Source of the DNA: Elusimicrobiota bacterium
Lineage (GTDB): Bacteria; Elusimicrobiota; Elusimicrobia; UBA1565; JACRDR01
NCBI GenBank assembly: GCA_041694815.1
Contig: JBGFSC010000047.1
Coordinates: forward strand, 23,362-87,361
Length of the DNA stretch: 64,000 nucleotides
Reading direction: 5' to 3'
The notes beneath the pieces were generated by a model. The model was given only the letters and a program-made list of their open reading frames with translations. It was not told the DNA's origin and did no database searches. Positions 19,186 to 49,689 of the stretch are shown here, piece by piece; within the stretch, counting starts at the first letter, position 1, and every line of letters begins with the position of its first letter. The translations under genes were made by a program, and so were the position numbers.

Positions 19186-20088
19186 ATGCCCCGAGACCTC
19201 GAATTCGTGCCCCCTGATAATTTGCTCGAGCATTTCCGCTCCTTCGGCAGGGGATTGGCCGTCACCCGCGGGGTCTACGAGCTGCGCAACCGGCACCAGG
19301 CCCAGGACCTGGCCTGGAACCACATGGACCAGATGCATCGCCCGCTGGTGCACAACACCTATCTGGAGGCCTCGCGCATCGCCCGCGGCAGGAATTTCGC
19401 CCTGTCATTGACGAAAATGACCCCCTTTTCTTTGCTCGTGCCGGTAATGGACGTGCAATTGGGCCCCGACTTATTCTACCAGTCCTTCACGCTGTTTAGC
19501 CTCGTGCACGTGCTCTGCCTCAACCGGATGGTTCCCGAGCCGGATGGGCGCTGCCTGCAGCGCACCGAGTGGTACATCACCTCGCATTGGCTGTTTAAGT
19601 TCCTGCACCCCCTCGTCCATCGCCGCTTCAGGAGGCTCGTCGAGTTCCAGAACGCCCAGGACATCCCGATCCGCGACCGGCGCCAGCAGCTGCGCGAGCG
19701 CGGCTATCGCTTCGGCAGCGACGACCCGGATTATCTGAGCTCCAACAGCCTGGAGCTGGCCGTGCGGCCGCCGCGGCTGGAGGGGACGCACCGCATCGAC
19801 GTGAGCGCGGTCGGCGCGGCGCTGGAGCAGAAAATGGCGGGGCCGATCGAGCTCCTGATCCGGCGCTCGGGCGGGACCGTCGAGGTCTGGCCCGGGGTCT
19901 GCCCGCATGAGGGAGGGCCGCTGCTCTGCGGCAAGCTGGAGGCCGGCCGGATCGAATGCCCTTGGCATGGATTGAATTTTTCCGGGGTTTCGCTTACCCC
20001 CTCCAAGCCCGACGGCCGGCTCGGCGAGCTGGCACTGACGCTCGAAGGCGAGTCGCTGCGCGTGCAGGCGGCATCATCAGCCGGGTGA
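19186..20088 (+). CDS. Rieske [2Fe-2S] domain protein with uncharacterised ~230-aa N-terminal domain
   Basis: C-terminal CPHEGGPLLCGKLEAGRIECPWHG (CxH-x16-CxxH); in-frame TAG at 19165 fixes the start at 19186; N-terminal domain contains an H-x4-H (NHMDQMH) patch. Confidence 0.6.
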   Translation: MPRDLEFVPPDNLLEHFRSFGRGLAVTRGVYELRNRHQAQDLAWNHMDQMHRPLVHNTYLEASRIARGRNFALSLTKMTPFSLLVPVMDVQLGPDLFYQSFTLFSLVHVLCLNRMVPEPDGRCLQRTEWYITSHWLFKFLHPLVHRRFRRLVEFQNAQDIPIRDRRQQLRERGYRFGSDDPDYLSSNSLELAVRPPRLEGTHRIDVSAVGAALEQKMAGPIELLIRRSGGTVEVWPGVCPHEGGPLLCGKLEAGRIECPWHGLNFSGVSLTPSKPDGRLGELALTLEGESLRVQAASSAG

Positions 20089-20121: not shown

Positions 20122-21012
20122 GTGAGCGCGCTGGAAATTAGCGCCATCGTCCCGGCCTACAATGAGCAGGGCGCTGTCGGCCCGGTCGTCTCCGGCCTCT
20201 CGGAGCTGTTGCGCAAGCATGCCGCGCGCTTCGAGATCATCGCCGTCGACGACGGCTCCACCGACTCCACCGCCGAGGCCGCCGAGAAGGCCGGGGCCGT
20301 CGTCCTCCGCCATCCCGTCAACCGCGGCTACGGCCGATCGCTTCTGACCGGCATCGAAAAAGCCCGCTATGAGTGGATACTCATCATCGACGGGGACGGC
20401 AGCTACCCCCCCGAGGAGGCCGAGCGCCTGCTCCCCAAGGCCCCGGCCTGCGACCTTATCATCGGCAAGCGGGAAGGAAAGTTCTTTTGGGGGAACCCCC
20501 TTCAGGCCTTCATGCGCTGGTGCTACCTCGCGATGGCGGGCTTCGTCACGGGCGAGAGCATCCCGGACGCCAATTCGGGGATGCGGCTCTTTCGAAAAAG
20601 CTCCTTGGACCGTTCCATGCCCTTCGTCTGCCTCGGCTACTCCTTTACCACCACCATGACGCTCTCCTTCATCGCCGCCGGACGCTTCGTCGCCTATGTT
20701 CCCATCCGCTTCGTCGAGCGCCGCGGCCACTCGAAGGTCAAGCCCCCGCGCGACATCCTACGCACGCTGCAGATCATGACGCAGATGCTGCTCTACTACA
20801 ACCCACTGAAGCTGGCCGTCAGCCTGTCGGCCGGCTCGGCGGTGGCTGCGCTCGCCATCTTCCTCTTCCTCAGCCCGCGCTGGGGCATCCATTCCGCCTT
20901 CTTTGCCGCCTGCGTGCCGGCCTCCCTCGCCGTGCTGATCTTTTTGGCCGGCTGCCTGATGGATGCCGTGCGCATGCATTTTCAGGCGCGCAACGGCGGC
21001 TACAAGATTTGA
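20122..21012 (+). CDS. GT2 glycosyltransferase, DPM1/ArnC-like with C-terminal TM anchor
   Basis: IVPAYNEQ, IIAVDDGSTDST, DGDGSYPP motifs; two C-terminal TM helices typical of ArnC/GtrB; GTG start. Confidence 0.75.
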   Translation: MSALEISAIVPAYNEQGAVGPVVSGLSELLRKHAARFEIIAVDDGSTDSTAEAAEKAGAVVLRHPVNRGYGRSLLTGIEKARYEWILIIDGDGSYPPEEAERLLPKAPACDLIIGKREGKFFWGNPLQAFMRWCYLAMAGFVTGESIPDANSGMRLFRKSSLDRSMPFVCLGYSFTTTMTLSFIAAGRFVAYVPIRFVERRGHSKVKPPRDILRTLQIMTQMLLYYNPLKLAVSLSAGSAVAALAIFLFLSPRWGIHSAFFAACVPASLAVLIFLAGCLMDAVRMHFQARNGGYKI

Positions 21013-22784
21013 TGCACTGGCCGTTCTACTTACTTGCCTTGGCGATAGCGGCCTTCTCCCTTTTCCTTTCGCCGGAAACGCTGGCCCGACAGTTCAGCCA
21101 GGACTCAAGCCTCGCCGGCTATGTCGTCTTCCGGCTGGGTGTCGCCCGCGCGCTCGGGGGACTGCTCGCCGTCTTACTGGCCGCTTGGGGATCGCTCGAC
21201 GCGCAGCGTCGGGTTCTCTGGCGGGCCCGCTGGGCGAGCTGGAGCCGGCACCCCGCGCTGGCCGCGCCGATACTCGCGGCCGCCGCGGCGCTGCTTTGGA
21301 CCGAAAACCATATTTTCGAGTCGGAAAGCTGCGCGGAGGGATTTCTGACCGTCGGGGCGTGGCGCATGGCCGCCGGAGATTTTCCCTACCGCGACTTCTT
21401 CGTGTTCATCCCGCCGGCCGGGCTCGCCTATCTCGGGGCCGCCTTCAAGCTGTTCGGGCCGTCGCTGGAGGTGGGCCGCCTCTTCGTCAACCTGATCCCC
21501 AAGCTCCTGATCGTGATCGTGCTCTGGCGGCTGGCCAAGCCGTATTTCTCGCCCTTGACGGCCCTGCTCCTGGGCTGCTTCAGCCTGATGTACACCAGCG
21601 GCAACGGCGACAACGCCCAGATCTACAACGGAGCCCTCTCGATGCTCCCCGCCTTCGCGACGCTGCCCCTGCTCGACCGGTTCGCCCGAAGCGGGAACGC
21701 GGCGCTCCTGCGCTGGGCCGGCGCGGCGGCGGCGGCAGCCGCGCTCGTGCGACAGGATTTCGGGGCCTTGGCCCTCGGCGCGAACCTCTCCTTCCTGCTG
21801 TGGCTTCCCGACGGCCGCAAGATCCGGCCACTGGCGAATTACCTGCTCCCGTGGGCCGGGGTCCTGGCCGCGGCCGGCCTGATCCTGCTCCTCACGGTTC
21901 CCTTCGACCGGCTCTACGAATGCTTCGTCCGCGCGCCGTACGAGTACATGCATTACAGCGGGATCGGGCGCCCCGCCTCCTTCCACGGGATTTATCTCAT
22001 CCCTTTCGCCGGCGTGGATCTCAAGGCCATCTCCTGGAAGGCGCTCGCCGCCAACGCCTGGATCTACCAGTCGAAGCTGCTGCTCTGCTACATCGCGATA
22101 CTAGGCGGATCGTGGTTTTTGCTCCGCCGGAAGGACGAGGCGCGGCGGCCCTCGGTGGCCCTGCTGGCGCTTTGGTGCATCTTCTTCATGGGCATCGTCT
22201 ATAAGCAGAGCTCCAATATCTACATCGGGGTGGCCCCCGCCGCCGTCATTCTGGCGGCGCTGCTCATCCGCCGCCCCTTGCCGGCCCTGCTTTTGGCCGC
22301 CCACGGCCTGACCCTTCTCTTCTTCCGGCCCTTCTCGGCGCCGGAGGGCTCGGTCTGGGCCGAGCTGGCCGTGGGTCGCTTCCGCTTCCCCGACCCGCTG
22401 GAGGGCCGAGAGATGATACGGCTCATCACACATGCCCAATCCATCGTACAGCCCTCCGAGCCCGTCTACATCCACAACAAGGAGCGCATGTGCAGCGACA
22501 CGCTGCTCTACTTCCTCGTTTCCCGCCGCCCGGCCACCCGCTACCACGAGTTCCTTAACGCCTACGCCCGCAAGCCCGAGATCCGCTCGCAGATCGAGGC
22601 CGAGCTCGAGAGCCGGCGTGCGCCGGCGGTCATCGAGCGGCTGCTCCCGCCGGACCTGTCGGAGACGCCGGGGGTAAGCATCGCGCAGGCGAAACAGCGC
22701 GACTCCTTGGACCAATACATCCTAGACCATTACCGCAGCGTCGGACGCTATGGCTCCTATATCCTATGGCAAAGACGGCGCTGA
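21012..22784 (+). CDS. polytopic membrane protein, putative GT-C glycosyltransferase
   Basis: 590 aa from ATG 21012 (TGATG overlap with the upstream stop). The ORF-track 20373 start is an out-of-context extension. Many TM helices. Confidence 0.4.
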   Translation: MHWPFYLLALAIAAFSLFLSPETLARQFSQDSSLAGYVVFRLGVARALGGLLAVLLAAWGSLDAQRRVLWRARWASWSRHPALAAPILAAAAALLWTENHIFESESCAEGFLTVGAWRMAAGDFPYRDFFVFIPPAGLAYLGAAFKLFGPSLEVGRLFVNLIPKLLIVIVLWRLAKPYFSPLTALLLGCFSLMYTSGNGDNAQIYNGALSMLPAFATLPLLDRFARSGNAALLRWAGAAAAAAALVRQDFGALALGANLSFLLWLPDGRKIRPLANYLLPWAGVLAAAGLILLLTVPFDRLYECFVRAPYEYMHYSGIGRPASFHGIYLIPFAGVDLKAISWKALAANAWIYQSKLLLCYIAILGGSWFLLRRKDEARRPSVALLALWCIFFMGIVYKQSSNIYIGVAPAAVILAALLIRRPLPALLLAAHGLTLLFFRPFSAPEGSVWAELAVGRFRFPDPLEGREMIRLITHAQSIVQPSEPVYIHNKERMCSDTLLYFLVSRRPATRYHEFLNAYARKPEIRSQIEAELESRRAPAVIERLLPPDLSETPGVSIAQAKQRDSLDQYILDHYRSVGRYGSYILWQRRR

Positions 22785-23788
22785 AGCTCCGCTCGTATTT
22801 CTCCGGAAAACGCACGCTCGTTACCGGCGGCACCGGCATGATCGGCCGCGCCCTCGTGGCACGGCTCGTCGATGCCGGCGCCAAGGTGCGCATCGCCTCG
22901 CTCGACGATCCCTCGCGGGCGCATCCCAAGGCCGAATTCCTCAAGGCGGACCTGACCCGCTTCGAGGAGTGCCGCCGGGCCTGCAAAGGTATCGAGCTGG
23001 TCTTCCATCTGGCCGGCGTCAAAGGCTCGCCCTTAATGACCTCTAAGAAACCGGCGAGCTTCTTCGTGCCCACCATCTCCTTCAACACGAACATGATGGA
23101 GGCAGCGCGGCAATGCGGCGCCGCTAAATACCTCTACACGAGCTCGATCGGGGTCTACGCGCCCGCGCCCGTCTTTCGGGAAGACGACGTCTGGAAGACC
23201 TTTCCCTCCGACAACGACAAGTTCGCCGGCTGGGCCAAGCGCATGGGCGAGCTTCAGGCTGATGCCTACCGGATCGAATATGGCTGGCAGGGGGTCGAGA
23301 TCGTCCGGCCCGCCAATGTCTACGGCCCCTACGACAATTTCGACCCGGACAACGCGATGGTGATTCCGTCCTTGATCCGCCGCGCGCTCGATGGCGAGGA
23401 TCCCCTAACGGTCTGGGGGGACGGCTCGACGGTGCGCGACTTCATCCATGCCGAGGACGTCGCCCGCGGCATGATGCTGGTGATGGAGAAAGGGCTAGGC
23501 AAACCCGTCAATCTCGGCAGCGGCGAGGGCGTGAGCATCCGGCGCCTGGTGGAGATCATCGTCTCGCGGCTCAAGCGGAAGCCGCGCGTGGTCTGGGACA
23601 GCTCCCGGCCCGCCGGCGACCGCACGCGGCTCATGGACATCTCGCGCGCCAAGGCCCTGGGGTTTGAGCCGCGCGTGCCCATAGAGGAGGGCGTCGCGCA
23701 GGTCATGGACTGGTACGCCGGCAACCGCAAGGCGGCGCTCAAGCGCTATAACGTCTTCACGGAGAAGTCGCCCATCCCCGAACATTGA
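22766..23788 (+). CDS. GDP-L-fucose synthase-like SDR (nucleotide-sugar 3,5-epimerase/4-reductase)
   Basis: VTGGTGMIG Rossmann; NVYGPYDNFDPDNAMVIPSLIRR and VWGDGSTVRDFIHAEDVA blocks match Fcl/WcaG as recalled. Confidence 0.65.
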   Translation: MAKTALKLRSYFSGKRTLVTGGTGMIGRALVARLVDAGAKVRIASLDDPSRAHPKAEFLKADLTRFEECRRACKGIELVFHLAGVKGSPLMTSKKPASFFVPTISFNTNMMEAARQCGAAKYLYTSSIGVYAPAPVFREDDVWKTFPSDNDKFAGWAKRMGELQADAYRIEYGWQGVEIVRPANVYGPYDNFDPDNAMVIPSLIRRALDGEDPLTVWGDGSTVRDFIHAEDVARGMMLVMEKGLGKPVNLGSGEGVSIRRLVEIIVSRLKRKPRVVWDSSRPAGDRTRLMDISRAKALGFEPRVPIEEGVAQVMDWYAGNRKAALKRYNVFTEKSPIPEH

Positions 23789-24546
23789 TGCGACTGCTCG
23801 TGACCGGCGCCGGCGGCGGGCTGGGCCGTTTTCTATTCGAGCGCCTGGGCGGCCTGGGGCTGACCCGGCAAAACGCCGCCTCCCTGCTGCCGCGGCTTAG
23901 GCGTTCGGGGGTCGGCACCATCCTCCACTGCGCGGCAAGCCCCGCGCGGCAGGCTCGGGCCAAGCCCTTGCGCGAGTTCTTGGATGACAACCTTTTCCTG
24001 ACCCGGCGCCTGCTCGAGCTGCCTCATCGCAAATTCGTCTATATCTCGACGGTGGACGTCTACCCCAAGAGCGGCTCCAGGCACGCGGAGTCGGATCCGA
24101 TACGCCCCGACAAGGTCGAGGGGCTCTATGCCATGACGAAATGGCTTTCGGAACGGCTGGTCCAAGACCGCGGCCGCGGCCCGCTCATCCTGCGCCCAAG
24201 CTCGCTGTTAGGCGAGCACGCGCGGCCGAACAGCCTTTCGCGCCTGCTCGATGGCGGGCTCGTCCGCCTAAGCGCCTCTGGCGATTCGCGCTTCAACTGC
24301 GTTCGACACGAGGACCTGCTCGAATTCCTGCGCATCGCGCTGCGCCGGGACCTCAGGGGGATATACAATCTGGCCTCCTCCTCGGATATTACGCTTCTCC
24401 GGACGGCTCGAAGCCTCGGCGCCAAGGCCATTTTCGGACGCCATCGTTATCGGGTCCCCCGAGTCGACAACCGCAAGGCCGCCGCGCTATGGCCGGCCTT
24501 CCAACTCGGCTCGCTCGAGACCCTGCGCCGGAGCAAAAAAGTATAA
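23785..24546 (+). CDS. short SDR-family NAD(P)-binding reductase
   Basis: VTGAGGGLG and YAMTKWLSE (YxxxK); shorter than typical epimerases. Confidence 0.45.
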   Translation: MMRLLVTGAGGGLGRFLFERLGGLGLTRQNAASLLPRLRRSGVGTILHCAASPARQARAKPLREFLDDNLFLTRRLLELPHRKFVYISTVDVYPKSGSRHAESDPIRPDKVEGLYAMTKWLSERLVQDRGRGPLILRPSSLLGEHARPNSLSRLLDGGLVRLSASGDSRFNCVRHEDLLEFLRIALRRDLRGIYNLASSSDITLLRTARSLGAKAIFGRHRYRVPRVDNRKAAALWPAFQLGSLETLRRSKKV

Positions 24547-24556: not shown

Positions 24557-25222
24557 ATGAAAACGACATTGCTCATGCCGATTTTAAACGAGATCCACGG
24601 CATGAGGGCGGTGATGCCGCGCGTGCGCCGGGAATGGGTCGACGAGATGCTCGTCATCGACGGCGGCTCCACCGACGGCAGCCTCGAATACGCCCAAGAG
24701 CTCGGCTGCCGCGTGCTGCGCCAGAAGACCCCGGGCATCACCTACGCCTACCAGGAGGGTGTGGCCGCGGCGTCGGGGGAGGTGATCGTGGCCTTCTCCC
24801 CGGACGGAAACTCGGTTCCCGAGCGTATCCCGGAGCTGCTCGCCAAGATGCGCGAGGGCTACGACATGGTGATCGTCTCGCGCTACTTGGACGGCGCCAA
24901 GAGCGAGGACGATGACTGTGTCACCGCCATTGGCAACCGGATATTCACGGCCGCCATCAATTGGACCTTCGGAGGCCGCTACACCGATTGCTTGGTGATG
25001 TTCCGCGCCTTCCGCAAGGACGCGGTGGGCGATTTCCCCTCCGGCATTCCCCGGGCGGGACTAGAGCCATTGCTGGCGATCCGCTGCGCTAAGGCCAAGA
25101 GGCGGGTCGCCGAAATACCAGGCGACGAACCCAAGCGCATCGGCGGGCAGCGGAAGATGAGCCCCGTGCTCAACGGCATCGACATCATCCGCCTCATCGC
25201 GCGGGAGTATTTTTCGAGATGA
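24557..25222 (+). CDS. GT2 glycosyltransferase (soluble, DPM/GtrB-like catalytic domain)
   Basis: LMPILNE, LVIDGGSTDGS, SPDGNSVPE motifs. Confidence 0.6.
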   Translation: MKTTLLMPILNEIHGMRAVMPRVRREWVDEMLVIDGGSTDGSLEYAQELGCRVLRQKTPGITYAYQEGVAAASGEVIVAFSPDGNSVPERIPELLAKMREGYDMVIVSRYLDGAKSEDDDCVTAIGNRIFTAAINWTFGGRYTDCLVMFRAFRKDAVGDFPSGIPRAGLEPLLAIRCAKAKRRVAEIPGDEPKRIGGQRKMSPVLNGIDIIRLIAREYFSR

Positions 25223-26187
25223 GCTCTAAACCCTGGCTGCTCATCACGGGCGCCGCCGGCTTCATCGGCAGGAATCTCCTGGAGCGCTTCGCCAAGAACC
25301 CAGCCTACTCGGTCGCGGCCGTCTGGCATCAGTCGCCGCGGCCCCGGGAGCTCATCGGCGACCCCCGAATACGCTGGATACGCGCCGACCTGACGCAGCC
25401 GGCGCAGGTACGCGATGCCGTCTCGGGCGCGGACATCGTGCTGCACGCCGCCGCCACTACCTCGGGCTCCAAGGATATCGTCGAGCGGCCCAGCCGGCAC
25501 GTCACCGACAACGCCGTGATGAACTCCCTGTTGTTTCGGGCTTGCCACGAGCAGAAGGTCAAGCACGCGGTGTTCTTTAGCTGCAGCGTCATGTACTCCC
25601 CGCAGGACAAGCCGGTACGCGAGAGCGATTTCCGCTACGAGATCACCGCGCCTTATTTCGGCGTCGGCTGGACGAAGGTGTACTCGGAGAAGATGTGCGA
25701 GTTCTATTCCAGGCTCGGCACGACGCGCTTTACGGCGATCCGGCATTCGAATATCTACGGCCCTCACGATAAATACGACTTGGAGAAGTCCCATGTCTTC
25801 GGCGCCACGCTCGCCAAGGTGATGTCGGCCGAGCGCGAAATCGTCGTGTGGGGAGAAGGGACGGAGGAGCGCGACCTGCTGCATGTCGACGACCTGGCCG
25901 ACTTCGTTGAGAAACTCGTCACCCTCCAGAAGGAGCCCTTCGAGCTCATCAATGTGGGTTCGGGCCGCTCTGTCGCCGTTCGCGACCTAGCCGCCAAGAT
26001 CATCGAGCTCTCGGGACGCAAGCTCGAGATGCGCTTCGACCGCTCCAAGCCGAGCATTCCCTTCAAGCTGGCCTTGGATTCGGGGCGCGCCAAGAAGGTC
26101 TACGGCTGGTCACCGTCGGTGTCCCTAGAGGAGGGCATTCGCCGCAGCCTCCAGTGGTACCGGGAGCATGTGGGGGCCGCCGCATGA
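25219..26187 (+). CDS. GDP-fucose-synthase-like SDR epimerase/reductase (second copy)
   Basis: ITGAAGFIG; NIYGPHDKYDLEKSHVFGATLAKV; VWGEGTEERDLLHVDDLADF. Confidence 0.6.
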   Translation: MSSKPWLLITGAAGFIGRNLLERFAKNPAYSVAAVWHQSPRPRELIGDPRIRWIRADLTQPAQVRDAVSGADIVLHAAATTSGSKDIVERPSRHVTDNAVMNSLLFRACHEQKVKHAVFFSCSVMYSPQDKPVRESDFRYEITAPYFGVGWTKVYSEKMCEFYSRLGTTRFTAIRHSNIYGPHDKYDLEKSHVFGATLAKVMSAEREIVVWGEGTEERDLLHVDDLADFVEKLVTLQKEPFELINVGSGRSVAVRDLAAKIIELSGRKLEMRFDRSKPSIPFKLALDSGRAKKVYGWSPSVSLEEGIRRSLQWYREHVGAAA

Positions 26188-27161
26188 GCGCCAAGGCCGA
26201 CCGCGAGCTGCTCGGCAAGCTCTACCGGCTCATGCTCGGCATACGGCTCGCCGAGGAAAAGATCGTCGAGCTCTACCCCACCGACAAGATCCAGAGCCCG
26301 ATACACCTGTCCATCGGCCAGGAGGCGGTCTCGGCAGGCCTCGCCTTGGCGATGGGCGAGGCGGACAGGCTCTACGGGACCTACCGGGGCCACGGCCCCT
26401 ATATCGCGCTCGGGGGCGATCTCAAGAAGCTGTTCGCGGAGCTCTACGGCAAGGACACGGGCTGCGCCCGCGGCAAGGGAGGCTCCATGCACCTGGTAGC
26501 TCCCGAGGCTGGGCTCATGGGCTGCTCGGCCATCGTCGCGAGCACCATCCCCATCGCCACCGGCCACGCCCTGGCCTCCCAGATGCGCGGCCGGCGCTAC
26601 GCGGTGCTCTCCCTCTTCGGCGACGGCGGCGTCGACGAAGGCGTATTCTTCGAGAGCGTCAACTTCGCCGTGCTCAAGAACCTCCCCATTGTCTACGTGC
26701 TCGAGAACAACCGCTACGCGATCCATTCGACGGTTCCGGACCGGCACAAGCAGACCGAGCTTTTCCGCATCGCCGAGGGGCTGGGGCTTCGGGGAGAGCG
26801 CTTCGACGGCAACGACGCCTCGAATGTCTACGCCACGGCCAAGCGGGCGATCGACGCGGTGCGCGCGGGCTCGGTCCCGGCGCTGCTCGAGTACACGACC
26901 TACCGCTGGAGGGAGCATGTGGGCTCGCAGGAGGACTATGCGGCCGCCTACCGCGCCCCCGGCGAACGCGAGGAGGCGCTGGCCCACGACCCGCTCCAGA
27001 TAACCCGGAAGGCCTTGATCGAGGCGGGCGCCAGCCCGGTAGAGCTCGACGGGTGGCGCTCGCAGGTTCTCCAAGAAGTCGAGGAGGCCGTGCGCTTCGC
27101 CGAGCAAAGCCCCAGCCCCGCGCCCGGCCGACTTCTGGCCGACGTGTACGCCTCCCGATGA
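26184..27161 (+). CDS. ThDP-dependent dehydrogenase E1 component, alpha subunit (pyruvate/acetoin dehydrogenase type)
   Basis: GDGGVDEGVFFESVNFA ThDP-binding motif; YRGHG, GKGGSMHL. Confidence 0.8.
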   Translation: MSAKADRELLGKLYRLMLGIRLAEEKIVELYPTDKIQSPIHLSIGQEAVSAGLALAMGEADRLYGTYRGHGPYIALGGDLKKLFAELYGKDTGCARGKGGSMHLVAPEAGLMGCSAIVASTIPIATGHALASQMRGRRYAVLSLFGDGGVDEGVFFESVNFAVLKNLPIVYVLENNRYAIHSTVPDRHKQTELFRIAEGLGLRGERFDGNDASNVYATAKRAIDAVRAGSVPALLEYTTYRWREHVGSQEDYAAAYRAPGEREEALAHDPLQITRKALIEAGASPVELDGWRSQVLQEVEEAVRFAEQSPSPAPGRLLADVYASR

Positions 27162-28189
27162 AAACCCTCAACTACGGCCAGGCCATCCACCGCGCGCTTG
27201 AGTTCGCCATGGAGAAGGACCCTTCCGTCTTCGTCATGGGCATCGGCGTCGACGATCACAAGGCCGTCTTCGGCACCACCAAGGGCCTGCTCGAGAAATT
27301 CGGCAGGGAACGCGTATTCGACACGCCGATCTCCGAGGGGGCCATGACCGGCGTCGCCGTCGGGGCGGCCCTAGGCGGCATGCGCCCGGTGCATATCCAC
27401 ATCCGCTCGGATTTCCTATACCTGGCCATGGACCAATTGCTCAATATGGCCGCCAAGTGGCGCTCGATGTTCGGAGGTGCCGCGAGCGTGCCGATCGTCG
27501 TGCGCGCCGTCATCGGGCGGAGCTGGGGCCAGGGGGCGCAGCACTCGCAGAGCCTGCAGTCGCTCATCGCGCATGTGCCAGGGATCAAGGTCGGCATGCC
27601 CACGACGCCGGCCGACGCACAACAGATGCTGCTGGCGGCCATCGCCGACCCCAACCCCGTCGTGCTCTTCGAGCATCGACTGCTCTACGACATCGTCGGC
27701 GAATTGCCCGAGCCGGATTGGGCGGTGGAATTTAAGCGCGCCGTCGTCCGCCGCCCGGGCAAGGACCTCACCATCGTCGCCAACTCCTACATGGCCGTGG
27801 AGGCTCTCAAGGCCGCGGAGTTCCTCCAGGAGCACGGCATCGAGGCCGAAATCGTCGACCCGGTCACCGTGGTGCCGCTGGATGAGGCCGTTATCCTCGG
27901 CTCGATCCGCAAGACGGGGCGGCTCATCGTCATCGACACTAGCTGGACCTTCTGTGGCGTGAGCGCGGAGATTGCCGCCCTAGCCGCCGAAAAAGCCTTC
28001 TCGAGCTTGAAGCAGCCGGTTTTAAGGCTCGGCATGCAGCCAACCCCTTGCCCGGTGAGCAAGCCGCTCGAGAACCTCTTCTACCCCAACGCCGGCACCA
28101 TCGCCGACGCCGCCTTCAAGATGATGGAGCGCCGCTCGCCCGAGCTGCGCGCCCCGGTTCTGACCCACGCCTTCAAGGGGCCGTTCTGA
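27158..28189 (+). CDS. ThDP-dependent dehydrogenase E1 component, beta subunit
   Basis: ATG 27158 overlaps the alpha stop (ATGA); transketolase-like pyrimidine-binding and C-terminal domains. The ORF-track 26168 start is a frame extension through the alpha gene. Confidence 0.8.
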   Translation: MKTLNYGQAIHRALEFAMEKDPSVFVMGIGVDDHKAVFGTTKGLLEKFGRERVFDTPISEGAMTGVAVGAALGGMRPVHIHIRSDFLYLAMDQLLNMAAKWRSMFGGAASVPIVVRAVIGRSWGQGAQHSQSLQSLIAHVPGIKVGMPTTPADAQQMLLAAIADPNPVVLFEHRLLYDIVGELPEPDWAVEFKRAVVRRPGKDLTIVANSYMAVEALKAAEFLQEHGIEAEIVDPVTVVPLDEAVILGSIRKTGRLIVIDTSWTFCGVSAEIAALAAEKAFSSLKQPVLRLGMQPTPCPVSKPLENLFYPNAGTIADAAFKMMERRSPELRAPVLTHAFKGPF

Positions 28190-29355
28190 TGATCCGCTAT
28201 TACCTCGCCGAGGACACGATCGACCGCAAGGACGTCGACCGACTCGTCGACTGGCTCAAGACATACCCGAGGCTCACCCAGGGGCCGCTGGTCCGGCAAT
28301 TCGAGGAGAAATGGAGCCGCTGGCTTGGGGCCCCGCGCTCGGTGTTCTGCAACTCCGGGTCCTCGGCCAACCTGCTGATGTACTATGCCCTGCTGCTCTC
28401 GGGCAGGCTCAAGAACCGCGAGGTGGTCGTGCCCTCCGTCGGCTGGGGCACCTCCATCGCACCGGCGATACAGTTCGGTTTCGAGCCGCTGATCTGCGAG
28501 GCGGACAAGGACACCTTCGGCCTCGACTTGAACCATCTCGAGGCGCTGCTTAAAAAGCACAAGCCCTCCTCCGTCCTGCTGGTTCAGGTGTTGGGCGTCC
28601 CGCACAAGATGAAGGAGCTTATGGCCCTGAAGAAGAAATACAAGTTCTTCCTGATGGAGGACGCCTGTGCCGCGATCGGGGCCGCTTATCAAGGCCGCCA
28701 TGTCGGCACCTTCGGCGACATGGCGAGCTTCTCATTCTATTTCGGGCATCAGATGTCGACGATCGAAGGCGGCATGGTCTCGACCTCGGACAAGAAATTC
28801 GCCGACCTGCTGCGCTTGACTCGCGCCCACGGCTGGAGCAAGGACTTAGACGCCGAGGCTCATCAGGCCTTGGTCAAAAAGCATCGCATCGATGATTTCC
28901 ATACCCCATTCGTCTTCTACGAGCCTGGCTTCAATCTCCGATCGACCGATCTTAATGCCTTCCTGGGCCTGGGCCAGGTCGACAAGCTCGCCTGGATCAT
29001 CGAGACCAGGCAGCGCAACCATGCGATTTACTCCCGGTTGCTGGGCGCGCGCTTCTACACGCAGAAGCCGGAACCGGGGTCTACGGTGTGCAGCATTTCT
29101 TTCGGCATGCTGGCCGACGACGCCAAGCAGCGCCGAGCCATTGTGAGCGCCCTGGTGGAAAATGGGGTGGAGACGCGAATATTTTCCGCGGGCAACCTGG
29201 GCCTGCACCCCTTCTGGGTCAAGCGATTCGGCAAGGCGAGTTTTCCCATGGCCGATCGCATCCATCACACGGGACTATTTTTGCCCAATAATCCGTCGCT
29301 TTCTACGGATACGGTCGAAAGCATCGCCAAGATTGTCCTGGAGGCGGCCCGATGA
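28189..29355 (+). CDS. DegT-fold PMP-dependent nucleotide-sugar 3-dehydratase (ColD/E1-like; His replaces Schiff-base Lys)
   Basis: DegT/DnrJ/EryC1 fold; the PLP-lysine position reads SFSFYFGHQMSTIEGG (His, no Lys) as in ColD/AscC; ATG 28189 overlaps the E1-beta stop. Confidence 0.6.
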   Translation: MIRYYLAEDTIDRKDVDRLVDWLKTYPRLTQGPLVRQFEEKWSRWLGAPRSVFCNSGSSANLLMYYALLLSGRLKNREVVVPSVGWGTSIAPAIQFGFEPLICEADKDTFGLDLNHLEALLKKHKPSSVLLVQVLGVPHKMKELMALKKKYKFFLMEDACAAIGAAYQGRHVGTFGDMASFSFYFGHQMSTIEGGMVSTSDKKFADLLRLTRAHGWSKDLDAEAHQALVKKHRIDDFHTPFVFYEPGFNLRSTDLNAFLGLGQVDKLAWIIETRQRNHAIYSRLLGARFYTQKPEPGSTVCSISFGMLADDAKQRRAIVSALVENGVETRIFSAGNLGLHPFWVKRFGKASFPMADRIHHTGLFLPNNPSLSTDTVESIAKIVLEAAR

Positions 29356-30335
29356 CCCCCACGATCCGGCGGGTGTTGATCACGGGCATCACCGGCTCCG
29401 GCGGCAGTTACCTCGCCGATCACATACTCGAGGAGCATCCAAAGGTGGAGCTGCACGGCATTACGCGCTGGCATACCTCCTCGAGCCATCGCGATCTCTT
29501 CGGCGGCCGGGCGATACTGCATGAATGCGATCTTACCGATCTGCTCTCCGTGCTCAACGCCGTGGAGAAATCCAAGCCGGACGCCATCTTCCATCTGGCG
29601 GCGCACGCCAACGTGCGCGCCTCCTTCGACACCCCGGGCGCGGTTCTCACGAACAACATACTCGGGACCAGCAATCTCTTCGAGGCCGTGCGCCGGTGCA
29701 AGCTGAACCCGCTGATCCAGCTCTGCAGCACCTCCGAGGTCTACGGGCAGGTGGATCCCACGGACCTGCCCATTAAAGAAGACGCGCCTCTGCGACCCAT
29801 TAGCCCCTATGCGGTTTCGAAGACCGCCCAGGACCTTTTGGGCTGGGGCTATTTCAAGAGCTACGGCATGCGCATCATCCGCACGCGGATGTTCACCTAT
29901 TTCAATCCCCGGCGCACCGATCTGTTCGCCACCGCCTTCGCGCGGCAGATCGCCTGGATCGAGCAGGGGCTAGCCAAGGAATTGCGCCACGGGAACCTGA
30001 ACTCGGTGAGGACCTTCATCGACGTACGCGACGCGGTGCGCGCCTATTGGGAAGCGACCCTGCATTGCGTCCCCGGCGAGGCCTACAATATCGGCGGCCG
30101 CACGACGATGACGGTGGGCGACTGCCTCGAACGCCTCAAGGCCCTAGCCAAGGTGAAGATCCCGACTCGGCAGGACCCGGCGCTGATGCGCCCGGCCGAC
30201 GTGACCCTGCAGATCCCCTGCGTGGACAAATTCGTCAAGGCCACCGGCTGGCAGCCCCGATACGATTTTGACGACAGCCTGCGGCATCTCTTGGAGCACT
30301 GGCGCGCCGAGGCGAGGAGGGAGAAAGCGGCATGA
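29352..30335 (+). CDS. GDP-mannose 4,6-dehydratase-like enzyme (Gmd/DmhA family)
   Basis: VLITGITGSGGSYLADHILE matches the Gmd N-terminus ITGITGQDGSYLAE; YAVSKTAQD catalytic YxxxK. Confidence 0.7.
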   Translation: MTPTIRRVLITGITGSGGSYLADHILEEHPKVELHGITRWHTSSSHRDLFGGRAILHECDLTDLLSVLNAVEKSKPDAIFHLAAHANVRASFDTPGAVLTNNILGTSNLFEAVRRCKLNPLIQLCSTSEVYGQVDPTDLPIKEDAPLRPISPYAVSKTAQDLLGWGYFKSYGMRIIRTRMFTYFNPRRTDLFATAFARQIAWIEQGLAKELRHGNLNSVRTFIDVRDAVRAYWEATLHCVPGEAYNIGGRTTMTVGDCLERLKALAKVKIPTRQDPALMRPADVTLQIPCVDKFVKATGWQPRYDFDDSLRHLLEHWRAEARREKAA

Positions 30336-31273
30336 TCCAACGGGTGCTGGTCACGGGAGGCGCGGGCTATATCGGCTCGGTGCTGGTCCCGCTGCTTTTG
30401 GAGCGGGGCTTTAAGGTCACGGTGCTCGATAATTTCCTCTACGGGCAAAACAGCCTGCTCGACTGCTGCGGGCGCGAGGGATTCGAGATCGTGCGCGGCG
30501 ATTGCCGCGACGAGCGCCTTCTCTCCGAGCAGCTCAGGAACGCGGATATACTCATTCCCCTGGCCGCGCTGGTGGGCGTCCCGGCCTGCGACCGGGACCC
30601 CGTCGCCGCCGAGACCACCAACCTGGGGGCCGTGCGCTCACTCTGCAAGCTCGCCTCCAAATCGCAGCGGATGCTGTTCCCGGTAACCAACAGCGGCTAT
30701 GGGATCGGCGTGAAGGGCAAGGCCTGCACCGAAGAAAGCCCTCTCAAGCCGCTCTCGCTCTACGGCCGCACCAAGGTGCAGGCCGAGGAGGCGGTGCTCT
30801 CTCGCGGCAATTCCATCGCCTTCCGCCTGGCCACCGCCTTCGGCGCCTCGCCGCGCATGCGCATGGACCTGCTCGTCAACGATTTCGTCCACCGCGCCGT
30901 CAGCGACCGCGCCGTCGTGGTGTTCGAGGGGCATTTTCAGCGCAATTACATCCATGTCCGCGACATTGCCCGAGTCTTTTTGCACGGCATCGAGCGCTTC
31001 GACTCGATGCAGGGCAGGCCCTACAATGTCGGCCTCGAGGACGCCAATCTCTCCAAGCTCGAGCTCTGCGCCATGATCCAAAAAATCGTGCCGCAATTCG
31101 TGTTCGTCGAGGCCCCGGTGGGCGAGGACCCGGACAAGCGCGATTACATCGTCTCCAACGCGCGGCTTTTGTCGACGGGGTTTAAACCCGAGTGGAGCTT
31201 GGAGCGGGGGATACGGGAACTGGTTAAGGCGTATAAGATACTCAAGGGTTTTAATCCTTATGCCAACGCATAA
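30332..31273 (+). CDS. SDR nucleotide-sugar 4-ketoreductase/epimerase (RfbJ/ColC-like)
   Basis: VTGGAGYIGS; YGRTKVQAEE. Confidence 0.5.
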   Translation: MIQRVLVTGGAGYIGSVLVPLLLERGFKVTVLDNFLYGQNSLLDCCGREGFEIVRGDCRDERLLSEQLRNADILIPLAALVGVPACDRDPVAAETTNLGAVRSLCKLASKSQRMLFPVTNSGYGIGVKGKACTEESPLKPLSLYGRTKVQAEEAVLSRGNSIAFRLATAFGASPRMRMDLLVNDFVHRAVSDRAVVVFEGHFQRNYIHVRDIARVFLHGIERFDSMQGRPYNVGLEDANLSKLELCAMIQKIVPQFVFVEAPVGEDPDKRDYIVSNARLLSTGFKPEWSLERGIRELVKAYKILKGFNPYANA

Positions 31274-31282: not shown

Positions 31283-32293
31283 ATGATCATCAGCCGAACC
31301 CCCTTCCGCATGTCCTTCTTCGGCGGCGGGACCGATTACCCCGCCTGGTTCCGCGAGAACGGCGGCTGCGTGCTGTCGACGACGATCAACAAGTACTGCT
31401 ACATTACCTGTCGCTACCTGCCCCCCTTCTTCGACTACCGCAGCCGCATCCTCTACTCCAAGGTCGAGACGGTGCAGGACAACGGAGACATCGAGCACCC
31501 GGCGGTGCGCGCCATCCTCAAGCATTTAGACATTAGCCAGGGAGTCGAAATCCATCATGACGGAGATCTTCCCGCCCGCACGGGACTGGGCTCCTCCTCT
31601 TCCTTCGCGGTCGGCCTGCTGCACGCCCTGCGCGCCATGCGGCATCAGCCCCGCGATAAGATGCAATTGGCGCAGGAGGCCATACACATCGAGCAGGAGA
31701 TCCTCCAGGAAAACGTCGGCTGCCAGGACCAGGTGATCGCCGCCGTAGGAGGCCTCAATCGCATCGATTTCCATCCCAACGGAAAGATCGATGTCGACCC
31801 CGTCACCATCAGCCCCGCGCGGCTCTGCGAACTACAGGAGCACCTCCTGCTCTATTTCACCGGCTTTTCCCGCATCGCCTCCCTGATCGTGAAGGAGCAG
31901 CTCAACCGCATACAGGACACGAAGGCCCAGCTCAAGCGCATGCAGGCCATGGTGCGCGAGTCGATCGACATACTCAGCGGCGGCGACCTCGCGGATTTCG
32001 GCCGGCTGCTCGATGAGGGTTGGTCACTCAAGCGCACGCTGAGCTCGAAGGTCTCCTCGCCCTTCATTGACGAGATTTACGAGAACGCCAAGGCCTGCGG
32101 CGCCCTGGGCGGAAAGCTGCTTGGAGCCGGGGGAGGTGGCTTCATGCTGATCTTCGCCCGCCCTCAGGACCAGCCGAAGATCAAGGAGCGCCTCAAGAAG
32201 CTCATGCGCATCCCTTTCCAGATCGAAGACGACGGAAGCCGCATCATCCTCTACCAACCGGACGCGCAAGACGGCGCACTTCCTGAATCTTGA
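31283..32293 (+). CDS. hddA: D-glycero-D-manno-heptose 7-phosphate kinase-like GHMP kinase
   Basis: MIISRTPFRMSFFGGGTDYP N-terminus and GLGSSSSFAVGLLHAL GHMP motif. Confidence 0.7.
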   Translation: MIISRTPFRMSFFGGGTDYPAWFRENGGCVLSTTINKYCYITCRYLPPFFDYRSRILYSKVETVQDNGDIEHPAVRAILKHLDISQGVEIHHDGDLPARTGLGSSSSFAVGLLHALRAMRHQPRDKMQLAQEAIHIEQEILQENVGCQDQVIAAVGGLNRIDFHPNGKIDVDPVTISPARLCELQEHLLLYFTGFSRIASLIVKEQLNRIQDTKAQLKRMQAMVRESIDILSGGDLADFGRLLDEGWSLKRTLSSKVSSPFIDEIYENAKACGALGGKLLGAGGGGFMLIFARPQDQPKIKERLKKLMRIPFQIEDDGSRIILYQPDAQDGALPES

Positions 32294-32976
32294 TGGTGGA
32301 TGCCGTTATCCTCTGCGGCGGGCTCGGCACGCGGCTGCGCGAGGCGGTGCCGGACCGGCCCAAGCCCATGGCCGACGTGGGCGGCAGGCCGTTTTTGGAG
32401 CTGTTGGTCGACTGGGTCGCCGGTCAGGGCTTTAATCGGATCATACTCTGCGTGGGCCATCGAGCGGACATGGTGCGGGCGCATTTTCGCTCGGACTCGC
32501 GCCGCGAGATCCTATTCTCCGAGGAAAGGGAGCCTCTAGGGACCGGAGGGGCCCTGCGCCTGTGCCGTCCGCATGGCGCGAGCGATCCTTTCCTGGTACT
32601 CAACGGCGATTCTTTCTGCGACATAGACCTTCACGCGATGCTTCAGTTCCACGCGGAGAAGAAGGCCGCTGCCACGGTGGCGGCGGTGCGCCCGGACGGG
32701 CGCGAGGATGGGGGCAATATCGCGGCGGGCACGGACATGCGGGTTTCGGCCTTCGCCGAGAAAAAGAAAACCGAAGGCGCCGCTTGGCTCAACGCCGGGG
32801 TCTACGCCTTGGGCTCCCGCGTATGGGACTTCATTCCTCCAGGGCGCAGCTCCTTAGAAACGGACGTGCTGCCCAAGATGCTCCTTGCCGGCGTCTACGT
32901 GTTCGCCACGAGCGCGACCCTCTTCGATATCGGCACTCCCGCGCGGCTGGAGGCCTTCCGCCGCTTGAGGTCATGA
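32290..32976 (+). CDS. hddC: heptose-1-phosphate guanylyltransferase-like nucleotidyltransferase
   Basis: AVILCGGLGTRLRE...PKPM nucleotidyltransferase signature; translationally coupled to hddA. Confidence 0.65.
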   Translation: MMVDAVILCGGLGTRLREAVPDRPKPMADVGGRPFLELLVDWVAGQGFNRIILCVGHRADMVRAHFRSDSRREILFSEEREPLGTGGALRLCRPHGASDPFLVLNGDSFCDIDLHAMLQFHAEKKAAATVAAVRPDGREDGGNIAAGTDMRVSAFAEKKKTEGAAWLNAGVYALGSRVWDFIPPGRSSLETDVLPKMLLAGVYVFATSATLFDIGTPARLEAFRRLRS

Positions 32977-34886
32977 ACCTACTCTTCATCTGCCACGAGC
33001 TTCCACCCATCGGGGGAGGCTCTGGCAACGCGGCCCTGGCCTTGGCCCGCGAGCTTGCCGTGGAGCACTCCGTGGTGCTGCTCACTTCCGGCTATCGCGA
33101 GTTGCCGGCTCAAGAACGGCATGGACAACTCCGCGTGCTGCGCTTGCCATCACCCAGGCGTCGCGTCGACGGAGCCAGCCCCATTGAACTCGTCGCCTTC
33201 GCGGCCCTCGCCGTCCGGGAGGCCTCGCGCCTGCATCGCGAACGACCCTTCGACGCCGCCGTCGCGGTGCACGCCACCGCGGCCGCATGGGCGGCGTGGC
33301 TCTTGCGCAAGCGGCGCGGCATTCCCTACGTGCTCGCTTTGAGGGGTGCCGACGTGCCAGGCTTCTTCCCGGAAATGTACGGCTGGATGCACCGAGCATC
33401 CTCCTGGCTCACTCGGCGATGTTGGGGCAGCGCCGCGGCGCTGGTGGCCAACAGCGAGGGCTTAAAACGGCTGGCCGAACGCACCGCCGCGCCCTTGGGA
33501 CGCGCCGTTAAGCTTATCGAAAACGGCGTCGACGCGGATTTCTTCACGCCCGCGGCTTCCATGCCCCAGGGGCAGGGCCTGTTCGTCGGAAGGCTGAGCC
33601 GGCAGAAGGGCCTCGAGCCGTTCTTCGAAGCGCTGCGCCTCGGCGCGCCGAGGCTGCGCGGCCGGCTGCGCCTTGAGATCGTAGGCGTAGGGGAATTGGC
33701 AAGCACATTAAGTCGCCTGGCCGAGGACGGCTTGGCCGACATCGTCTCTTTTTCCCCATGGATGGACAAGGAAGCGCTGCGTGAAAGATACCGGGCATCC
33801 TCCTTTTTCGTTTTTCCGTCGTTGGAGGAAGGCATGTCCAACGCCCTGCTCGAGGCGATGGCCTGCGGGCTCCCGGTACTGGCCGCCGACGTCTACGGCA
33901 ACAAGGGCTTGGTCGAAAACGGGGTCAACGGCTTCCTCATCCCGCCTGATGATCCGGCCGCCTGGGCCGAAGCCCTCTACCGCATGGCGGCCCTGGAACC
34001 CACCGCCCTTAAGTCCATGGGCCAAAAAAGCCGCCAGAAGGCGCTGGGCAAGAGTTGGGGAGAGGCGGCGCGCCGCTATGAATCACTGCTGCCCCATCCC
34101 GCCGCGTGGACCCCCGAGCGCGTCGCGCGTTTCTTCGACCTGTATCAGGCCCAGGGCGGGCTAGAGGATAACTATTTCGGGAGGCAGAGGGGAGCTGCCC
34201 TGCTGCGTTTCGTGCTCCGCCGAAGCCTCCTGCCGCAGCCGGCGCTCGATGTCGGCTGCGGTCCCGGCTATTTTCTCGAGTATCTGGTCGCCGCGCGGAT
34301 CCGCTGCGCCGGCGCCGACCTGTCGGCGGCCTCCGTCGAGCGGGCGAACCGGCGGCTGGGCGGAAATCCATATTTCCTGGGGGCGCACCGGATGGGCGAT
34401 GGCTTTGCGCTCCCCTTCGAGGACGGGGCCTTCCAAAGCGCCTTCCTGATGGAGACGGCCGAGCATCTGCTGCCGGAGTCGATTGCGGCCGTGTTCGGCG
34501 AGCTCCGCCGGGTATTGGCGCCGGGTGGCCGCCTGGTGGTCACTACGCCTTACCGCGAGGACCTGCGGGATTCCTCTTTGCTATGCCCGCATTGCGGCGC
34601 CACCTTCCACCAGATCCAGCATGTCTCTTCCTTCGACGAACGCAACCTGCCGGAGCTGCTCGAGAGCCACGGCTTTTCCTGCGAGCTGGCCGAGGCACCA
34701 GCGCTTCTTCCAGACTGGCGCATCTGGCTTCGGGCGCAGGGTGGACTCGGGGCATCGGCGGCGGCATGCCCCGAATGCGGGAAGGCCTTCGCGCCGCCCG
34801 CTCCGGGCCTCCTAAAACGGGCGCGGATGCTGCTTCGGGAGCTGCGCCATCTAGTCTGCGTGGCGCACCGGGCGCCTGGCAAGTAG
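32973..34886 (+). CDS. GT4 glycosyltransferase fused to a C-terminal SAM-dependent methyltransferase domain
   Basis: EGMSNALLEAMACGLPVLAADV GT4 signature; later LDVGCGPGYFLEYL SAM motif; ATG 32973 (ATGA overlap with hddC). Confidence 0.7.
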   Translation: MNLLFICHELPPIGGGSGNAALALARELAVEHSVVLLTSGYRELPAQERHGQLRVLRLPSPRRRVDGASPIELVAFAALAVREASRLHRERPFDAAVAVHATAAAWAAWLLRKRRGIPYVLALRGADVPGFFPEMYGWMHRASSWLTRRCWGSAAALVANSEGLKRLAERTAAPLGRAVKLIENGVDADFFTPAASMPQGQGLFVGRLSRQKGLEPFFEALRLGAPRLRGRLRLEIVGVGELASTLSRLAEDGLADIVSFSPWMDKEALRERYRASSFFVFPSLEEGMSNALLEAMACGLPVLAADVYGNKGLVENGVNGFLIPPDDPAAWAEALYRMAALEPTALKSMGQKSRQKALGKSWGEAARRYESLLPHPAAWTPERVARFFDLYQAQGGLEDNYFGRQRGAALLRFVLRRSLLPQPALDVGCGPGYFLEYLVAARIRCAGADLSAASVERANRRLGGNPYFLGAHRMGDGFALPFEDGAFQSAFLMETAEHLLPESIAAVFGELRRVLAPGGRLVVTTPYREDLRDSSLLCPHCGATFHQIQHVSSFDERNLPELLESHGFSCELAEAPALLPDWRIWLRAQGGLGASAAACPECGKAFAPPAPGLLKRARMLLRELRHLVCVAHRAPGK

Positions 34887-43619: not shown

Positions 43620-43620
43620 A

Positions 43621-49601: not shown

Positions 49602-49689
49602 GCCGCTAATACGTAACAGGAACTTCAAAAAAATGCAATACATTCTTAGGTGCCTGGGCGAAAGTCAATCCCTGGCACCTAGGCCACGC

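Follow-up and report, generated by a model that had tools for sequence, protein, structure and literature searches.

An E1-type α/β gene pair in a predicted GDP-heptose operon of an Elusimicrobiota bacterium: a candidate carboligase for two-carbon sugar branching

What do genes for the two chains of a pyruvate-dehydrogenase-type E1 do in the middle of an operon for deoxysugar synthesis? The question is raised by a 64,000-nucleotide stretch of DNA (hereafter the window) from an Elusimicrobiota bacterium (GenBank assembly GCA_041694815.1, contig JBGFSC010000047.1, positions 23,362 to 87,361). An E1 α-like gene (26184-27161) and an E1 β-like gene (27158-28189) lie here mid-operon, in a run of 15 genes on the + strand (~19.2-34.9 kb), most of whose junctions are 4-nt ATGA or TTGA overlaps. 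An earlier sequence-only reading had suggested that the pair adds a two-carbon (C2) branch to a 4-keto sugar. Synteny, a tree of the pair, NCBIfam scores and a class of enzymes described in the literature all support that suggestion. We consider it fairly probable, on comparative grounds, that the pair is a free-standing thiamine diphosphate (ThDP)-dependent carboligase of the aKADH2 class that would add a pyruvate-derived C2 unit to C4 of a GDP-3-deoxy- or GDP-3,6-dideoxy-4-keto-heptose, outside any 2-oxoacid dehydrogenase complex.

The E1 α/β pair and its distance from complex-bound E1s

The E1 α-like protein, the proposed carboligase α chain, has 325 residues (Pfam E1_dh, E 3e-61) and carries an intact ThDP motif at residues 146-176, GDGGVDEGVFFESVNFAVLKNLPIVYVLENN (GDGGVDEG...ENN). 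The E1 β-like protein has 343 residues (Transket_pyr, 3e-33; Transketolase_C, 9e-32). ATGA overlaps of 4 nt join the α gene to the short-chain dehydrogenase/reductase (SDR) gene upstream (SDR2), the α gene to the β gene, the DegT-family 3-dehydratase gene to the GDP-mannose-dehydratase (GMD)-like gene behind it, and the latter to the next SDR gene (SDR3). The gene calls, the motif and the coupled junctions bear out the placement of an E1 α/β pair inside a deoxysugar operon. Of the ATGA overlaps that had been claimed downstream of the pair, that between the DegT and GMD-like genes is present, whereas the β and DegT genes meet at TGATG with an overlap of 1 nt. A 673-codon open reading frame (ORF; 26168-28189) that would encode a fused α-β protein was rejected: its first half is the β frame run across the α gene and reads as Arg/Pro-rich nonsense. 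Both Pfam and the codon-position GC profile (GC3/GC2) back separate genes, and we therefore treat the pair as two genes.

The fold is that of the E1s of 2-oxoacid dehydrogenase complexes. The best PDB matches of the α chain are human pyruvate dehydrogenase (PDH) E1 α (1e-48) and branched-chain 2-oxoacid dehydrogenase (BCKDH), and the pair is 38-43% identical to genuine acetoin dehydrogenase and PDH E1 pairs in a trimmed concatenated alignment. Both chains nevertheless score below the NCBIfam cut-offs: α reaches 295 bits against the true-PDH model TIGR03182 (cut-off 393.85), and β reaches 306.5 bits against NF006667 (PRK09212; cut-off 321). The TPP_enzyme_C match of the α chain is partial and sub-threshold, and Pfam finds no TPP_enzyme_N or TPP_enzyme_M domain in it; unlike YerE-type enzymes, which are single-chain ThDP/FAD proteins, the window enzyme has the two-chain E1 fold.

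No E2 or E3 partner was found. Pfam scans of 50 large ORFs of the window contain no 2-oxoacid_dh, lipoyl or Pyr_redox_dim domain. Searches with phmmer were run on ORFs of at least 80 codons in the window and in 93 comparison loci (L001-L093), with three E2 sequences and one E3 sequence as probes, all from operons annotated for acetoin or 2-oxoacid dehydrogenases in C. difficile, Rhizobium and Paracoccus. They gave no match in the 64 kb, as the sequence-only reading had held, and in L001-L085 no E2 or E3 up to 10 kb on either side of the homologous pair. The matches that did appear fell in reference loci, in one Streptomyces locus with its own E2, and weakly in L074, where the E3-probe match (E 4e-5) looks like generic nucleotide-binding similarity. 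By contrast, an E2 gene stands directly downstream of the E1 pair in 10 of the 11 reference pairs, and the Thermus acoA gene adjoins a lipoyl-domain ORF.

We built neighbour-joining trees from concatenated E1 α and β sequences (638 columns, 90 taxa). The references, drawn from PLSDB plasmid and chromid records, comprised S. meliloti PDH, three Streptomyces/Embleya pairs, pairs from Rhodococcus, C. difficile, Enterococcus and Rhizobium, Paracoccus aco and Thermus acoA. Every bootstrap replicate (50/50 with all 11 references, 60/60 in a run with 8) set the pairs in a sugar context, that of the window included, apart from the reference pairs, so that the window pair separates from genuine PDH and acetoin E1s with full support and groups with pairs from sugar clusters. 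The pair of Streptomyces albogriseolus pSALBX2 fell on the sugar side in every replicate; its neighbours (an EryCIII-like glycosyltransferase, a P450, a DrrAB exporter and an adenylating enzyme) point to an antibiotic cluster. Identity between the window pair and this Streptomyces pair is ~46% in the same trimmed alignment.

Only two substitutions, αF39P and βG210S, separate the clades. All 87 of 87 sugar-context pairs have Pro at residue 39 of α (26298-26300), against Phe in 7/8 references; residue 210 of β is Ser in 86/87 sugar-context pairs and Gly in 7/8 complex-type references. The invariant His41 follows two residues after position 39 of α, and the substitution at 39 may widen the acceptor pocket. 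We also looked in the sugar clade for a diagnostic loss of α H245 and β H129, which we take to be the counterparts of the catalytic histidines of complex-bound E1s, and found none: both are invariant.

Operon genes, predicted heptose supply and related loci

Directly behind the pair lies a gene for a ColD-type, pyridoxamine phosphate-dependent sugar 3-dehydratase of the DegT family (28189-29355; best PDB matches 2gms/3gr9, 1e-47). Its His187 occupies the column of ColD His188, in place of the lysine that forms the Schiff base with pyridoxal phosphate. The same histidine is present in 37 of 42 DegT homologues drawn from the fetched loci and the window, most of which adjoin the E1 pair. The 3-dehydratase called earlier at this place is thus confirmed, as a ColD-type enzyme. 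An Fe-S 3-dehydratase of the RfbH/E1 type, with the Rieske protein encoded at 19186-20088 as its partner, was considered for this gene and rejected; ColD scores higher (166 vs 128 bits), and the protein has the length of ColD (~390 amino acids).

The next gene (29352-30335) encodes a GMD-family SDR (GDP_Man_Dehyd), for which the earlier reading had proposed a 4,6-dehydratase. By score alone it lies about equally close to the Rmd reductase 2pk3 (189 bits) and to the C. jejuni GDP-heptose 4,6-dehydratase 7us5 (182 bits). Its motifs, STSEVYG and TRM.T...PRR.D.F, are those of the dehydratases, whereas both Rmd reductases have PGQ in place of PRR. On the strength of these motifs we lean towards that assignment: the protein is probably a GDP-heptose 4,6-dehydratase and possibly an Rmd-like reductase. 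The motifs speak for the proposal, and the scores do not decide.

SDR3 (30332-31273) encodes a Cj1427-like C4-dehydrogenase, matching PDB 6vo6/6vo8 at 6.6e-115 with 55% identity end to end over 311 aligned residues. We take 6VO6 to be Cj1427, whose structure is reportedly that of Huddleston et al. 2020; the depositor name matches. The database cluster mates of this 313-residue protein are 54-residue cbb3 oxidase subunit 3 proteins, which looks like an indexing artefact. Two activation genes follow. The first encodes an HddA-like GHMP sugar kinase (31283-32293; PDB 3k85, 4usk and 4n3o at 1e-36 to 1e-42; NCBIfam HddA 146 bits, cut-off 600), whose best PDB matches are heptose-phosphate kinases: 4n3o is a putative heptose 7-phosphate kinase of C. 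jejuni, and 4usk is presumably WcbL. The second encodes an HddC/ManC-like sugar-1-phosphate nucleotidyltransferase (32290-32976), probably a guanylyltransferase; its NCBIfam scores, 135 bits for mannose-1-P guanylyltransferase and 114 bits for HddC, stay under the respective cut-offs.

A second heptose activation set lies 18 kb downstream on the - strand (50415-53279), so that the window has two HddA/HddC pairs. It consists of a GmhA-like sedoheptulose-7-P isomerase (50415-51041, start codon approximate; NCBIfam gmhA 1e-32, below cut-off), a second HddA-like kinase (51031-52038; Pfam, NCBIfam) and an HddC-like nucleotidyltransferase fused to a GmhB-like heptose-bisphosphate phosphatase (51999-53279; Pfam NTP_transferase and HAD; NCBIfam GmhB 3e-48). 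Together these would form a complete route from sedoheptulose-7-P to GDP-heptose. All four heptose-activation activities thus have homologues within the window (31283-32976 and 50415-53279), all of them below the NCBIfam equivalog cut-offs. The Cj1427-type dehydrogenase, the HddA/HddC-like enzymes and this set 18 kb away strengthen what had been put forward as a possibility, that the branched sugar is a heptose. The second set is followed by a glycosyltransferase family 2 (GT2) gene (about 49690-50400), and two tandem PmbA/TldD-like metallopeptidase genes (53288-56588, -) lie directly upstream of it.

The rest of the operon consists of glycosyltransferase and SDR genes and an opening gene of another kind. 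The first gene (19186-20088) encodes a 300-residue protein with a C-terminal Rieske [2Fe-2S] domain only and no NCBIfam match. It is followed by a GT2 of the polyprenyl-phosphate glycosyltransferase type (20122-21012; Pfam, NCBIfam), a GT-C membrane glycosyltransferase that is a candidate user of a lipid-linked sugar (21009-22784; Pfam PMT_2), a GDP-fucose-synthase (GFS)-like SDR (22766-23788; PDB 8du0 and 1bsv at 1e-32 to 1e-37) and a short SDR-like protein of 253 residues (23785-24546; Pfam Epimerase 2e-14; co-conserved in loci L005, L018, L059 and L065). A small GT2 of the polyprenyl-phosphate type comes next (24557-25222; Pfam Glycos_transf_2; NCBIfam AglJ / dolichyl-P hexose transferase / ArnC-like), and then SDR2, a GFS-like epimerase/reductase (25219-26187; PDB 1bws and 7ll6 at ~1e-29; co-conserved in L005, L006 and L018), which is the gene that is ATGA-coupled to E1 α. 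The last gene of the operon encodes a GT4 glycosyltransferase fused to an S-adenosylmethionine (SAM)-dependent methyltransferase (32973-34886; domain scan).

The E1 α family is large: the best 120 clusters at 90% identity are all at least 57% identical and come almost entirely from metagenomes or metagenome-assembled genomes (MAGs). A scan of species-representative genomes yielded 80 loci, onto which the proteins of the window were mapped. The gene tables of three relatives read E1 α, E1 β, DegT, SDR, SDR, GHMP kinase and NTP transferase, and this cassette is present in independent genomes of Elusimicrobiota, Omnitrophota, Nitrospirota, Binatia, Planctomycetota, Acidobacteriota and Burkholderiales. 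One variant carries an inserted B12-radical SAM gene and an aldo-keto reductase gene; in paulomycose the acetyl branch is reduced by an enzyme of the aldo-keto reductase type (PMC4753412).

The clade of the window itself (57-66% E1 α identity) comprises 23 loci, 5 of them on short contigs, from Elusimicrobiota, Omnitrophota, Nitrospirota, Binatia and Planctomycetia. A Cj1427-like gene is present in 20 of these, an HddA-like gene in 17, DegT in 16 and a B12-type radical SAM gene in 8; a homologue of the GMD-like protein (29352-30335) is found in just 8. The next clade (~42-48% E1 α identity; 22 loci from Burkholderiales, Bryobacterales, Gemmataceae, Binatia and Azospirillum) has Cj1427-like genes at 13 loci, HddA-like at 16, DegT at 18 and B12-type radical SAM at 10. 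B12-binding radical SAM genes therefore stand at 18 of the 45 loci of the two nearest clades (for example L001, 16970-18472, and L003, 13143-15158), where their products might C-methylate the branch or form a ring; the operon of the window has none. The 42 more distant sugar-context loci have radical SAM genes in at least 22 cases, an HldE-like kinase in 17 and GmhA in 8, and the latter two suggest a heptose there too, supplied by an ADP-type route.

Carriers in culture include Solidesulfovibrio magneticus RS-1, whose plasmid pDMC1 encodes GT2, GT2, radical SAM, NUDIX, kinase, E1 α, E1 β, GFS, DegT, SDR, NTP transferase and GT-C proteins, as well as Azospirillum thermophilum and Azospirillum oryzae; in the last of these the pair is flanked by an HldE-like kinase and GmhA. 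The sugar clade of E1 α/β pairs also spans Desulfovibrionales, cyanobacteria and archaea.

A predicted branching pathway and its alternatives

A 2025 review defines the aKADH2 class, with members in the aldgamycin (knock-out and feeding evidence), avilamycin, paulomycin, trioxacarcin, kosinostatin, everninomicin, pillaromycin and kibdelomycin pathways (PMC12247030). These E1-like pairs are proposed to put pyruvate-derived C2 branches on C3 or C4 of keto-sugars, with a tertiary alcohol as the product (PMC12247030, PMC4753412), which agrees with the earlier statement that PDH-E1-like pairs in sugar clusters install such branches. For one pair, KbDH-α/β, C2 branching of ketone sugar analogues has been obtained in vitro, and ~120 clusters were found in silico (PMC12247030). 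Like the window pair, AlmDI/DII (aldgarose), AviB1/B2 (eurekanate), Pau11/12 (paulomycose) and KbDH (kibdelomycin) consist of E1 α and E1 β without E2/E3, encoded among nucleotide-sugar genes. The actinomycete systems differ in belonging to antibiotic clusters and acting on dTDP- or UDP-activated hexoses or pentoses, whereas the window holds an envelope-glycan operon with polyprenyl-phosphate GT2 and GT-C genes and a predicted GDP-heptose, and its keto-sugar would come from a Cj1427-type dehydrogenase together with a ColD-type 3-dehydratase.

The acceptor can be modelled on the capsular GDP-heptose pathways of C. jejuni. There, Cj1427 and a C3-dehydratase form GDP-3-deoxy-4-keto-heptose in vitro, the route through a 4,6-dehydratase gives the 3,6-dideoxy-4-keto sugar, and some serotypes, which possess the C4-dehydrogenase as well as the 4,6-dehydratase, form 6-OH and 6-deoxy products alike (PMC10680097). 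The window has homologues of each enzyme of these pathways (Cj1427, DdahA, the HS:5 C3-dehydratase and the GFS-like C4-reductases), together with HddA/HddC-like enzymes. The C. jejuni pathways described in that work have no ThDP enzyme and only epimerise and reduce their 4-keto intermediates, whereas in the window the E1 pair stands directly upstream of the 3-dehydratase.

All steps of the pathway that follows are predicted from homology, including the donor, the branch position, the order of the steps, the reductase and the acceptor. The Cj1427-like dehydrogenase (30332-31273) would oxidise C4; alternatively or additionally, the GMD-family enzyme (29352-30335) would yield the 6-deoxy-4-keto form. 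The ColD-type enzyme (28189-29355) would then strip the 3-hydroxyl to give GDP-3-deoxy- or GDP-3,6-dideoxy-4-keto-heptose, so that the 3,6-dideoxy sugar proposed earlier may be a 3-deoxy sugar instead or as well. The E1 α/β pair would decarboxylate pyruvate to hydroxyethylidene-ThDP and add it onto the C4 ketone, leaving a tertiary alcohol with a 4-C-acetyl branch, which one of the four remaining SDRs would probably reduce to a 1-hydroxyethyl group. Finally, the small GT2 would move the sugar onto polyprenyl phosphate, and the GT-C (PMT_2) protein would set it on an envelope acceptor.

Two further systems bear on the predicted chemistry. The branching enzymes named for Gram-negative surface polysaccharides form the YerE family, which is unrelated to E1 pairs (PMC4753412, PMC9306805). 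YerE and ErwE, of the yersiniose, erwiniose and caryophyllose pathways, resemble the proposed system in that a 3-deoxygenated 4-keto nucleotide sugar receives a C4 acyl branch from a 2-oxo acid and is then reduced (PMC9306805, PMC4753412), and the window enzyme and YerE probably share this type of acceptor. YerE differs in being a single-chain, FAD-containing protein of the acetolactate-synthase/decarboxylase fold that acts on CDP-hexoses, whereas the window pair has the heteromeric E1 fold, would use a GDP-heptose and lies outside the YerE family. AcoA/AcoB, the E1 of acetoin:2,6-dichlorophenolindophenol (DCPIP) oxidoreductase/acetoin dehydrogenase, is alike in fold, size and sequence (~39-43% identity), and an enzyme of this type carries out aldehyde-ketone carboligations to tertiary alcohols in vitro (PMC12247030). 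Aco pairs differ in being encoded with a lipoyl E2 or a lipoyl-domain protein and catabolic genes, and they fall in the opposite clade of the tree.

The enzyme class is thus already known, and the link to GDP-heptose envelope pathways is apparently the new part. Our literature search turned up no account of E1 α/β pairs tied to heptose pathways of the GDP or ADP type, although a prior listing in the 2024 aKADH2 survey (Krug et al.) is possible. C-branched sugars with acyl side chains are rare and stand out immunologically; their biosynthetic enzymes are of value as biocatalysts because they give chiral tertiary alcohols. The window and ~85 loci indicate a distinct E1 α/β clade wired into nucleotide-heptose envelope loci, and predict a class of branched heptoses (nonose skeletons) that would be new to structural chemistry; S. 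magneticus RS-1 and Azospirillum spp. are the cultured strains in which to look for them.

Several points weigh against assigning C4 branching to the pair. The role is argued from comparison of sequences. Retention of both presumed catalytic histidines, α H245 and β H129, throughout the sugar clade means that sequence by itself leaves lipoyl chemistry possible. The search of the source genome for E2/E3 covered 64 kb of a 148.5-kb contig, and such genes could lie elsewhere. The tree is a neighbour-joining tree with 11 references only; it does without AviB1/B2, AlmDI/DII, Pau11/12 and KbDH, and its sole actinomycete representative (L088) is uncharacterised. The kinase, the nucleotidyltransferase and the GmhA-like protein all score under the NCBIfam equivalog cut-offs. 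None of the SDRs can confidently be assigned as the branch ketoreductase, and the presence of both a C4-dehydrogenase and a probable 4,6-dehydratase means that the acceptor could be 6-OH or 6-deoxy.

Among the alternatives, the one that survives best keeps the enzyme class and changes the detail: the branch would sit at C3, or the donor would be a 2-oxo acid other than pyruvate (hydroxypyruvate, 2-oxobutyrate or a longer, functionalised acid), and no 4-C-acetyl sugar would form. We regard this as unlikely. Known aKADH2 enzymes branch at C3 or at C4 depending on the natural product, with C3 used in aldgarose and kibdelomycin (PMC12247030), but the Cj1427-like, GMD-like and ColD-like enzymes all create or keep a C4 ketone (PMC10680097). 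As to the donor, keto acids of C4-C8 serve the YerE-family enzymes that make erwiniose and sugars of the caryophyllose type (PMC9306805), and the radical SAM genes, B12-dependent or other, that recur beside the cassette hint at elaborate side chains. Against this, the known aKADH2 enzymes are limited to C2 donors, and KbDH to pyruvate (PMC12247030), and domain scans reveal no aldolase or keto-acid-forming gene within the operon.

The pair might instead act before nucleotide activation, as an acyloin synthase resembling 1-deoxy-xylulose 5-phosphate (DXP) synthase: pyruvate and a free or phosphorylated aldehyde would give an unusual deoxy-ketose or diol, to be taken on by the kinase and the nucleotidyltransferase. 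A kinase, a nucleotidyltransferase and one SDR are indeed the steadiest partners of the pair, loci can do without the 4,6-dehydratase-like gene, and E1 α is weakly similar to DXP_synthase_N. The constant SDR, however, is the full-length homologue of Cj1427, a GDP-heptose enzyme (PMC10680097), and in 37/42 cases the pair is accompanied by the His-type 3-dehydratase, whose substrate has to be a 4-keto sugar linked to a nucleotide. The closest structural relatives of the kinase are heptose kinases, and distant clades place the pair with HldE and GmhA, again pointing to a heptose. We hold this route to be highly unlikely. It is barely plausible that the pair serves as the E1 of a conventional dehydrogenase for pyruvate, acetoin or branched-chain 2-oxo acids, with E2/E3 elsewhere and an incidental place in the operon: its PDB matches, its identity to genuine pairs and its retained histidines fit such an enzyme, but overlaps tie it to sugar genes on both sides, the synteny recurs across phyla at ~85 loci without E2/E3 where reference pairs adjoin an E2, and the clades and the NCBIfam scores set it apart. 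A further idea, that the E1 pair recycles the 2-oxoglutarate used by Cj1427 or released by the ColD-type enzyme, was rejected, since the E1s that act on 2-oxoglutarate are single chains of the SucA type.

If the pair does add a C2 branch at C4, its product invites one comparison. The predicted 4-C-acetyl 3-deoxy-heptose matches the skeleton of caryose (4,8-cyclo-3,9-dideoxy-nonose) short of the C7-C8 bond, sharing with it the 3-deoxy position, the quaternary C4-OH, the C8 bonded to C4 and the C9 methyl. Closure of a ring between C7 and C8 is the kind of step that radical SAM enzymes perform. The E1 pair often has radical SAM genes next to it, the window holds one of the SPASM type (38642-39727), and the cassette occurs in Burkholderiales MAGs. 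On this view the cassette would be a route to C9 higher sugars, carbocyclic or elaborated in some other way, that start from a heptose; we consider this distinctly unlikely as matters stand. The biosynthesis of caryose was called unknown in a 2022 review (PMC9092360), and the comparison offers a testable hypothesis on the origin of orphan sugars of this kind. Were it true, the cassettes found in bacteria and archaea would point to an extensive and still unexplored group of envelope nonoses, branched or carbocyclic.

Other genes of the window

The 64 kb hold six PMT_2/GT-C genes (16137-18137, -; 21009-22784, +; 35666-36889, -; 39754-41454, -; 58116-59573, -; 60945-62648, -), which with several small polyprenyl-phosphate-type GT2 genes make an unusually dense island for lipid-linked extracytoplasmic glycosylation. 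The polyprenyl-phosphate-type GT2s and the six GT-C genes together suggest delivery to an envelope acceptor via a lipid-linked sugar.

Just downstream of the operon, at 36879-39727 (-), a NodU/CmcH-type carbamoyltransferase gene stands beside a gene for a radical SAM/SPASM protein (38642-39727). In the Elusimicrobia locus L005, too, the cassette is followed by a radical SAM/SPASM gene, and a Thermodesulfobacteriota clade has one directly upstream of E1 α. Further along the - strand are four tandem paralogous Trypsin_2 peptidase genes (42621-46618) and a gene for a 622-residue secreted protein with CarboxypepD_reg and Por_Secre_tail (type IX secretion C-terminal sorting) domains (47775-49643).

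A Lys-type DegT aminotransferase and two amine-oxidase-like flavoproteins are encoded at 59336-60463, 62638-63951 and 13734-15098, all on the - strand. The order DegT, amine oxidase, unknown protein also opens the Elusimicrobia locus L005, which suggests a second conserved sugar-modification module.

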